Positions 19,975 through 21,184 of a stretch of 64,000 bases of DNA are shown here, piece after piece. The stretch is taken from contig CAWHDT010000005.1 in assembly GCA_963828195.1 (NCBI GenBank), positions 384,001 to 448,000 of the forward strand. Reading direction: 5' to 3'. The DNA is from Candidatus Bathyarchaeota archaeon. Its GTDB lineage: Archaea; Thermoproteota; Bathyarchaeia; Bathyarchaeales; Bathycorpusculaceae. The notes below the pieces were generated by a model. It did no database searches. It was given only the letters and a program-made list of their open reading frames with translations, and was not told the origin of the DNA. The translations under genes and the position numbers were made by a program. The stretch's first letter is position 1. Each line of letters opens with the position of its first letter.

Positions 19975-20193
19975 TTGGTAACTCCAAAGGGCAAGCGCAA
20001 ACGTAGCAAAGTATTGATGATTGTGCTTTTTCCAGCGGTTATGTTTATTGCAGTTATTGGTTGGTGCTTGTACTGTTTGGGAGACCAAAAAAGACCAAAG
20101 AAGAAACAGCATAAACCGCCCCAAAAAATTGATGACGAGAACGTAACCTTTATGCCTATAATTTACGAGGAAAAGGAAGAAATAAGAACTTAA
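19975..20193 (+). CDS. Small single-TM hypothetical protein
   Basis: Basic N-terminus, hydrophobic LMIVLFPAVMFIAVIGWCLYCLG; GGTG SD. Confidence 0.6.
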   Translation: MVTPKGKRKRSKVLMIVLFPAVMFIAVIGWCLYCLGDQKRPKKKQHKPPQKIDDENVTFMPIIYEEKEEIRT

Positions 20194-20334
20194 TAATGCA
20201 AAAGCAAGCGCTTCATTAATCATTTGCAAAGTTAAAATTTGAACATTATAAATAGGCTTGCACGCTTGTTGTTGCAAATGCACAACCACAATTCCATTTA
20301 TACCTCGCAAAAGTTCTGTTAACTTGCGAGAAAA

Positions 20335-20475
20335 TAGCCATCCAAGAGGTACACCCACGCTTGGCGGGTTAGCAGTTAAATGAGGCGCGGATTGCTGCAC
20401 CCTGAAGACTCAGGGCTTTTTGATCCGCGGCTGTCGTTTAACAGTTGCGATCCGTCAAGCCTACTTTTGGTTACT
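20335..20475 (+). ncRNA. Candidate structured rod-like ncRNA
   Basis: Five nested helices with G-U pairs that favour the + strand; TTTATA at 20297. Confidence 0.55.
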
Positions 20476-20548
20476 CTTATCAAGTTAGCTGGTTTTCTGT
20501 ATAGAATTTATAAGGGATAGATGCAATTCTATTTTTTGTGAACGTAAC

Positions 20549-20908
20549 TTGAATTACAAAGAAAACATGCATCCGAAAGTCAGCCAAGCAGAAATGGCTG
20601 TTTTCCACGAATTAAGCAAAGCTGGCTTAACCACCGGCATGCTGACGCAAAACCCCATCATCCTAAAATCCACTATTCCAGATTTCTGTTGGGCTAACAA
20701 AAGAAAAATTGTGTACTTAGACGGCGTGCCAGTGCATTCCAGTGATAAAGCACAAAAACGTGACTGCGAAATCGATGAACTGCTGGAAGCGCAGGGATGG
20801 GAAGTGCTTAGAATTCCCTATCAACCGCCCATAACAGAGAAGGGACTTGCTGAAATAATGGCAACCATAAAACATTTTTTAAATGCGGACGTAGAAGAGG
20901 AAACGTAG
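20549..20908 (+). CDS. DUF559/Vsr-like endonuclease-domain protein
   Basis: TIPDF, VYLDG..H, RD..IDELLEAQGWEVLRI. Confidence 0.75.
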   Translation: MNYKENMHPKVSQAEMAVFHELSKAGLTTGMLTQNPIILKSTIPDFCWANKRKIVYLDGVPVHSSDKAQKRDCEIDELLEAQGWEVLRIPYQPPITEKGLAEIMATIKHFLNADVEEET

Positions 20909-21075: not shown

Positions 21076-21184
21076 GCTCCGGTAGTATAGTCCGGTCAAA
21101 CCTTACTAAGCCATCTTATTAAGGGACCATGTATAGCGGCCTCTCGAGTCGCGGACCCGGGTCCAAATCCCGGCCGGAGCACCA
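21076..21184 (+). tRNA. tRNA-Glu(CTC) with a 31-nt intron at position 21/22 (21100-21130)
   Basis: Acceptor GCTCCGG/CCGGAGC, anticodon arm GCGGC-CTCTCGA-GTCGC, BHB-like GGTC/GACC helix with 3-nt bulges; CCA encoded. Confidence 0.92.

Follow-up and report, generated by a model that had tools for sequence, protein, structure and literature searches.

A lineage-restricted family of rod-shaped structured RNAs with their own promoter in Bathyarchaeia

The window, the whole stretch of 64,000 nucleotides of Bathyarchaeia DNA that was analysed, contains a locus for an independently promoted, structurally constrained and lineage-restricted RNA (a predicted transcript) that has several paralogues. The predicted gene occupies positions 20326-20474 of the forward strand and probably extends to a T-run near 20497 (Table 1). 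The sequence-only reading of this DNA had proposed an uncharacterised structured RNA with its own promoter. This proposal is supported by compensatory base changes, by the promoter and by the terminator, as well as by the lack of a conserved open reading frame and of an Rfam family. It had missed that the locus has several paralogues, with which it forms a family. Judged against Rfam 15, this RNA family is new, lineage-restricted and without Rfam relative; as a kind, stand-alone structured archaeal ncRNAs are not unprecedented. Comparison of the sequences gives about an even chance to the idea that the RNA acts in trans within a ribonucleoprotein (RNP), with a constant protein-binding handle and variable modules.

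Table 1. Features of the locus and its surroundings in window coordinates. R1 and R2 are the covariance models described in the text.
Feature	Positions	Strand	Basis
Upstream promoter element: imperfect dyad GTTGTTG...CACAAC, then CACAA	20268..20291	+	29-locus alignment
TATA box TTTATA	20297..20302	+	near-invariant, 29 loci
Inverted repeat CTCGCAA-N13-TTGCGAG	20304..20330	+	predicted start within right arm (TTG/CGAG)
Conserved core of the RNA, predicted start to GGUUAC	20326..20474	+	R1 146.6 and R2 140.8 bits over 20324-20474
5' tail, invariant AAAUAGCCAUCCA	20326..20344	+	invariant alignment columns
P1, 5' strand AGAGGUA (partner 20462-20468)	20345..20351	+	94% of cells paired
Asymmetric internal loop CACCCAC (ACACCCA nearly invariant)	20352..20358	+	fold and alignment
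Basal rod helix, 5' strand GCUUGGCGGGUU, family signature UUGGCGGRUCA	20359..20370	+	conserved G-U wobble
Bulged A, then 5' strands of middle helix (GCAGUUAAAUGAG) and upper helix (CGCGGAUU)	20371..20393	+	fold, covariation
6x6 internal loop around apical hairpin 20400-20415	20394..20421	+	3' side: conserved U-tract CUUUUU(GAU)
3' strands of upper, middle and basal helices: GAUCCGCG ... UCGUUUAAC ... UGCGAUCCGUCAAGC	20422..20460	+	fold and covariation
P1, 3' strand UACUUUU, and conserved 3' tail GGUUAC	20462..20474	+	alignment and covariation
Variable spacer, then T-run (20493-20496) that probably terminates the primary transcript	20475..20499	+	29-locus alignment
TATA box of the downstream gene, inside conserved GTATAGAATTTATTAAGGG	20507..20513	+	alignment
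Neighbouring gene, DUF559/Vsr-like small endonuclease fold	20549 or 20567..20908	+	Pfam DUF559, E 1.9e-7

On the forward strand, the segment 20335-20480 has a minimum free energy (MFE) of -60 kcal/mol (z -5.13), and none of 200 dinucleotide shuffles folded as well. The reverse strand of the same segment is weaker (-48.4 kcal/mol, z -2.65). In the MFE structure, a basal helix (20359-20370/20449-20460) and a middle helix (20372-20384/20431-20448) are prolonged by an upper helix pairing CGCGGATT (20386-20393) with GATCCGCG (20422-20429), above which are found a 6x6 internal loop, GCUGCA/CUUUUU, and an apical stem-loop, CCCUGA-AGAC-UCAGGG, at 20400-20415. The 6x6 loop, which adjoins the apex, is the largest symmetric loop of the rod. 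All the helices, the internal loop and the apical stem-loop of the sequence-only reading are present in this fold. The modelled pairs of the locus itself comprise 37 Watson-Crick, 7 G-U and no A-C pairs. The description of the segment as GC-rich within AT-rich surroundings also holds, with a GC fraction of 0.49-0.55 in the element vs 0.27-0.33 in the flanks.

The element is single-copy in its 2.83-Mb genome, where the remaining blastn matches are 14-16 nt long. Of 36 genomes from this genus searched with blastn, 28 carry the element, with identities of 72-86%; four of these 28 align over the 5' 46-49 nt alone, where identity is 90-96%. The same search found it in none of 24 genomes from other families of the order. 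An alignment of 29 sequences (A1) was made with MAFFT without reference to structure. When the sequences are folded individually and judged by eye, 27 of the 29 give the unbranched rod of the locus, one being branched (L017) and one different (L030); a script counted 24 of 29, because its 3' anchor pattern missed L021, L032 and L033. When the structure, itself derived from one row of A1, is laid on the alignment, standard pairs occur in 85.5% of cells, vs 28-50% when the 3' partners are slid by one to three columns. Both sides have changed in 19 of the 51 pairs, vs a mean of 11.7 in shuffles (0 of 500 as high, with the caveat that related sequences may beat shuffles even without structure) and 7-13 in the slid controls. 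Homologues with compensatory changes, by which the proposed RNA was to be checked, are thus found. The changes are numerous in helix 4, where 11 of 15 pairs have changed on both sides, and the 3' half of the RNA beyond the internal U-tract covaries with the 5' half. In the paired cells of A1, 202 G-U pairs are counted vs 31 A-C pairs, an asymmetry that is meaningful only for an RNA made from the forward strand; basal-helix pair 48-151 is G-U in 27 of 29 sequences. In the locus itself, the non-Watson-Crick pairs are indeed G-U on the forward strand, from which selection at the RNA level had been proposed.

The outermost pairing is confirmed only in part. Within the genus, P1 (AGAGGUA/UACUUUU) is paired in 94% of cells, with one-sided changes only. 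The first reading had extended the pairing outwards through UAGCCA/UGGUUA; this extension is not supported, as a pair is broken in 19 of 29 sequences and covariation of this helix is absent from the 29-sequence alignment. A terminal redundancy or switch, in which the 5' tail would repeat the sequence of the 3' strand and tail, was tried and rejected: local alignment compared with shuffles gave z near 0 in most of 20 RNAs, with p<0.06 in 2 of the 20, three further RNAs without the anchor being left out.

Conservation is unevenly distributed along A1. The first 30 nt from the start (GCGAG-AAAUAGCCAUCCAAGAGGUACACCCA) are almost invariant and the rod varies. In the apical part, the UUUUG.U columns are invariant and the remainder varies, two types of apical loop being observed. 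On the 3' side of the rod comes a conserved CUACUUUU-RGUUAC, then a variable spacer of 8-25 nt and the T-run.

The promoter is conserved together with the RNA. All 29 loci keep the imperfect dyad GTTGT...ACAAC, the element CA(G/A)(T/C)CACAA and a TATA box, with TTGCGAG about 22 nt downstream of the latter. In the 80 nt that precede the RNA, the element CA[GA][TC]CACA[AT] occurs in 29 of 29 genus copies and in 16 of 25 other family members (expected by chance, 0.005 per such stretch). In archaea, the distance from the TATA box to the start is usually about 25 nt; from this spacing and the position of the TATA box, the start is placed near G20326. The TTTATA box of the sequence-only reading and the TTGCGAG arm of its inverted repeat are therefore confirmed in 29 of 29 loci. 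Since the left arm is variable, as judged by eye, and the right arm kept, the inverted repeat as such is not a conserved feature. At the other end, most of the 29 loci keep the T-run, and the downstream gene's promoter, itself conserved, lies directly after it; oligo-T is a terminator in archaea.

The extended promoter, GTTGYTG...CA(G/A)TCACAA...TATA, also precedes in the same genome a paralogue of the RNA (B, see below) and four protein genes, the positions being C3:164119(-), C5:203910(+), C7:192769(-) and C8:102452(+). Their products are a 285-aa secreted or membrane protein, a membrane protein with a zinc-ribbon-like tail, a fasciclin-like protein and a small Cys-rich protein. The occurrence of the same extended promoter before the RNAs and four protein genes suggests a small common regulon.

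Beyond the genus, the RNA was followed with covariance models. The model R1, built from the 29 genus sequences, gave weaker full-length matches in the sister genus g26 (3 of 6 genomes) and no match in 11 other families of the order; in a family-wide draw of 70 genera, it matched only g1, g26 and g82. The g26 and g82 copies keep AGCCAUC-AA, UUGGCGGRUCA, GUUAAC, ACGCGGA, the U-run, UCCGCG, GAUCCGCCAA and the 3' U4, and the same genomes also carry second, more diverged copies. A second model, R2, was built from 22 sequences (A3), namely 14 from g1, 6 from g26/g82 and 2 paralogues. In A3, the paired fraction of cells is 86.7%, and both sides have changed in 31 of 44 pairs, including 4 of 6 in P1; as the alignment was fitted to the model, these figures lean towards structure.

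With R2, the genome under study has three members. The studied locus (RNA-A) scores 140.8 bits and carries the basal stem signature UUGGCGGRUCA/GAUCCGCCAA, paired ends and its own promoter, as expected for a member of the family. Paralogue B (C9:68276-68427, reverse strand) scores 68.1 bits. Paralogue C (C3:450464-450612, forward strand) is a weak match (22.8 bits, E 0.049) with an orthologue in another genome of the genus. The paralogues are recognisable by the covariance model only. The promoter element also precedes paralogue B, which is located about 8 kb away from the 16S rRNA gene (C9:76010-77504). Although this 16S gene was found, no sequence of the genome was matched by the archaeal LSU rRNA model; the assembly, introns or the first filter of the search could account for this. 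Other single genomes or MAGs have up to three or four matches, and tandem pairs are frequent: in L048, L092, L105, L108 and L142, the members lie 150-670 nt apart, with a promoter-like sequence before each. All subfamilies share the lower-stem sequence UUGGCGGRUCA…GAUCCGCCAA and differ in their 5' tails and apical modules. By eye, the AGCCA-type motif of the 5' tail recurs in paralogues, and a sister subfamily has C-rich apical loops.

The distribution of the family is narrow. When 151 genomes were drawn across the class, from 31 families, R2 matches were confined to the family of the studied genome. In the family draw, they were found in 4 of 70 genera, g1 (3 of 5 genomes), g82 (3 of 4), g26 (2 of 4) and g72 (1 of 5). 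A scan of 185,579 species genomes for the pattern TTGGCGGRTCA-N75-105-GRTCCGCCAA returned 68 loci, and R2 validated 32 of these. Among the validated loci were 31 of the 32 titled Bathyarchaeota or Bathyarchaeia; the remaining one, L131, is an RNA-A copy (129.5 bits) on a 10.7-kb contig of a bin titled Candidatus Limnocylindrales, which most likely comes from Bathyarchaeia and was misbinned. The other 34 pattern loci with bacterial titles all failed validation by R2, as did the one titled 'uncultured archaeon'. Validated members thus belong to four genera of one Bathyarchaeia family or to Bathyarchaeia-titled contigs only. These contig titles are in accord with the lineage, Bathyarchaeia, that the sequence-only reading had assumed. 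One viral-contig match was obtained, weak (18.6 bits) and perfectly palindromic, and was judged unrelated.

In Rfam 15, no match for the locus was obtained when the whole window was searched at the gathering score; at E<=10 on the locus, only noise appeared, and a search of eight paralogue loci at E<=1 returned nothing. A full-text literature search found no Bathyarchaeia non-coding RNAs beyond the universal ones. The first reading had seen no hallmarks of SRP RNA, RNase P RNA, box C/D or box H/ACA RNAs, and both the Rfam search and inspection of the features agree with it. Archaeal SRP RNA, of about 300 nt, has helices 5, 6 and 8; its model (RF01857) does not match the locus, and the SRP RNA of the genome is at C5:21157-21471 (162 bits). 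About 600 nt downstream of this genuine SRP RNA gene, at C5:22058-22174, the central part of the same model (positions 126-247) finds a partial match (43.6 bits, E 1.2e-8). Archaeal RNase P RNA (RF00373) also gives no match at the locus, the copy of the genome being at C5:141586-141890 (190 bits). The unbranched rod lacks the three-way junction of 5S rRNA (RF00001) and does not match its model; the 5S rRNA of the genome is at C8:178571-178690.

Archaeal guide RNAs share some traits with the rod. Like the rod RNAs, the H/ACA and C/D guides are paralogous small RNAs with constant protein-binding and variable parts, and a hairpin with an internal loop is also common to both. An H/ACA RNA is recognised by a K-turn or K-loop in the upper stem and by an ANA box that lies on the 3' side of the lower stem, at 14-16 nt from the pocket. 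In the present RNA, the lower stem extends about 30 bp below the 6x6 loop, which puts any 3' box more than 40 nt from the loop; the sequence following the rod is UAC-UUUU in the genus and tandem G-A pairs are absent. A box C/D RNA has RUGAUGA near its 5' end, CUGA near its 3' end and a K-turn. Here, UGAUGA is absent, the sole CUGA lies in the apical hairpin, and the second loop type has CUAA. Unlike the guides, the rod thus has neither terminal C/D boxes, nor an ANA box at the right distance, nor a K-turn (GA/AG) at a 3-nt bulge, and the 5' side of its loop is not conserved as a guide would be.

Other small RNAs resemble the rod in their general organization. In Y, vault and adenovirus VA RNAs, the terminal stem includes a 3' U-tract, the lower stem is conserved and the upper or loop module varies. 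The rod RNA may be compared to them in these traits and in its size range (about 100-160 nt), its paired ends, its several paralogues and an element upstream of the TATA box. However, there is no similarity in sequence or in Rfam, and the rod RNA is archaeal, hence from a domain with a single RNA polymerase. A Y RNA of a Ro RNP, which is marked by the Ro60 protein and by a conserved bulged lower helix, was rejected: PF05731 (TROVE) has no match in the genome (96% complete) and no Rfam Y RNA matches. Bacterial 6S RNA is likewise a stand-alone rod with closed ends and internal loops; the present rod differs from it in having no large central bubble and no Rfam match. Within archaea, Klein, Misulovin and Eddy reportedly obtained in 2002, by composition screens, the orphan GC-rich ncRNAs HgcC, HgcE-G and SscA. 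The studied RNA shares with them a GC-rich structure in AT-rich intergenic DNA and its own promoter, but it is not matched by their Rfam models, comes from another lineage and belongs to a family of several paralogues sharing a stem. Finally, an Sm-type site, to which SmAP binds, is a single-stranded, U-rich R-A-U4-6-G-R. The U-tract of most genus copies, AUUUUUGA, looks like such a site, and UUUUG.U, at the 3' side of the apical loop, does not vary among the 29 genus copies. The tract of the paralogues is U- or C/U-rich and not constant.

In the proposed mechanism, a stable trans-acting ncRNA would be transcribed from its own promoter, made of the TATA box and the family-specific upstream element. 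Its 5' and 3' ends would pair in P1 and close a nearly unbranched rod of about 110 nt. The constant lower stem, with its G-U wobble and bulged A, would be the handle of a common RNA-binding protein. This suggestion comes from otherwise different paralogues, which share the sequence of the lower 25-30 bp, the G-U wobble and the bulged A, as would be expected if one protein read this stem. The variable single-stranded parts would give each paralogue its own specificity. In RNA-A, these would be the invariant 5' tail AAAUAGCCAUCC, the ACACCCA loop and the U-tract of the apical loop; in the sister subfamily, they would include the C-rich apical loops. The RNA would thus work as a modular RNP RNA of the Y, vault or VA type and not as a cis element.

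Other readings have to be weighed against this one, and the neighbourhood of the locus bears on two of them. As the first reading had stated, a separately promoted DUF559/Vsr-like gene follows, with a conserved TATA box of its own. The Pfam match of this ORF (E 1.9e-7) is accompanied, among orthologues, by the invariant residues D39, D52, H57, D60, K61, D66 and R82. Its AlphaFold model (pLDDT 79) is closest to Vsr (1cw0, TMq 0.69) and to the catalytic domain of I-Bth0305I (0.67), all Foldseek matches being weaker than E 0.001. Weaker fold matches to large-subunit proteins of the Toxoplasma gondii mitoribosome (TMq 0.55-0.59) show that a nuclease fold can serve in RNA binding. It may then be imagined that this protein is the dedicated partner of the RNA, either binding or cutting it or having it as decoy, regulator or guide. 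The gene adjoins the RNA on the same strand in 28 of 28 genus loci, though Lon is kept in the upstream flank in only 21 of 28, and in the two g82 genomes examined. All four RNA-bearing genera possess the protein, its acidic and His residues are invariant, and its fold resembles the RNA-bound mitoribosome proteins; moreover, Vsr recognises a T:G mismatch, of which the RNA counterpart is a G-U wobble. On the other hand, the DUF559 gene of g26 is on other contigs in 3 of 3 genomes, with no R2 match within 1.5 kb even with filters off, and the RNA of this genus sits behind a THEP1-like NTPase gene with a convergent ilvC opposite and no same-strand gene downstream. The protein occurs in 10 of 70 genera vs 4 of 70 for the RNA family, and at the g72, g74 and g23 loci, where the upstream DNA is mostly coding, R2 finds no adjoining match with filters off. 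Furthermore, RNA and gene have separate conserved promoters with the T-run between them, paralogues B and C are not adjacent to a DUF559-type gene, and no neighbour protein recurs across all subfamilies, synteny being only local (Trm1-like, NTPase and IlvC in the g26 type). Of the suggested partnership with the adjacent nuclease, strict adjacency in two genera stands; the lack of linkage in a third genus and the protein without RNA in others leave the partnership unproven, and we regard it as improbable. A role of the element as a cis-acting leader of the DUF559 mRNA, be it a riboswitch, an attenuator or a thermometer, is less probable still. Its same-strand position 75-95 nt upstream of the gene and an internal GC hairpin followed by U5 (20400-20421), which resembles an attenuator, would fit such a leader. 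Yet the conserved T-run and a separate TATA box intervene, the spacing between RNA and gene ranges from about 70 to 480 nt among loci, covariation links the 5' half to the part of the RNA beyond the U-tract, and g26 orthologues and paralogues have no same-strand gene downstream. The neighbours of the RNA in g26, the NTPase gene and the convergent ilvC, rather show an RNA independent of its neighbour genes.

A base-pairing regulatory sRNA is an unlikely reading, though the next in probability after the RNP RNA. Here the single-stranded 5' tail, or the ACACCCA and C-rich loops, would be an mRNA seed, the rod would be mainly a stabilising body and terminator, and the paralogues would be sibling sRNAs with different seeds. 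The tail, unlike the rod, does not vary among the 29 genus copies, tails differ among paralogues, and the apical loops of the sister subfamily are, by eye, unpaired and C-rich; bacterial sRNAs such as RsaE/RoxS use C-rich loops to target ribosome-binding sites. However, short-word blastn of the 5' tail against the genome gave best antisense matches of 11-13 nt at E>=0.7, as expected by chance. Against the rRNA operon, the tail reaches -25.8 kcal/mol, vs a mean of -27.5 for 30 shuffled tails, the region used being the 16S locus plus about 4.3 kb downstream, in which the 23S is unconfirmed because the LSU rRNA model is unmatched in the genome. A 12-bp match to the DUF559 mRNA occurs in the window only; over the 28 loci, the best sites differ and z is mostly 0 to -2. 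In addition, a 110-nt rod with a sequence-conserved lower stem goes far beyond the needs of a terminator. As for a DNA palindrome, a MITE or other repeat, or a small protein gene, the long inverted symmetry and an ATG located 6 nt past GAGGU (after GAGGUACACCC) in 14 of 29 sequences could suggest one of them, but these possibilities are scarcely tenable. The G-U over A-C excess is relevant solely in a forward-strand RNA. A MITE, named at the outset as a possible refutation, is contradicted by the single full-length copy, without near-identical ones, and by synteny across species. No conserved ORF was found in the 29 sequences: the best ATG frames encode 0-43 aa in differing frames, and 6 of the 29 have none.

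Two further features of this part of the window were observed. A 72-aa ORF with one hydrophobic segment (19975-20193, forward strand) lies between Lon and the RNA; it is found at 38-64% identity in many genus loci and belongs to no Pfam family. A tRNA gene at 21076-21181 (forward strand), probably tRNA-Glu, has a CUC anticodon loop and a D-arm region enlarged by about 36 inserted nt. A local Rfam search detected this gene (45 bits); ARAGORN and the whole-window Rfam search at the gathering score missed it.

Bathyarchaeia are abundant and almost wholly uncultured archaea of sediments and soils. To these organisms, the locus adds a well-supported RNA family, with a covarying structure, several paralogues per genome and a common promoter element that may mark a small set of co-regulated genes. 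A bolder view, which must be regarded as a long shot, is that the family provides the RNA subunits of a Bathyarchaeia-specific RNP, in which the constant stem would bind one protein and the tails and loops would select targets, thus forming a new modular class of guides or adaptors. In a sharper form of this view, the G-U stem of RNA-A would mimic a T:G mismatch, so as to bind, restrain or direct the Vsr-like endonuclease. If the constant stem is a protein handle, the family would be an equivalent, in archaea, of the eukaryotic small rod-like RNP RNAs.
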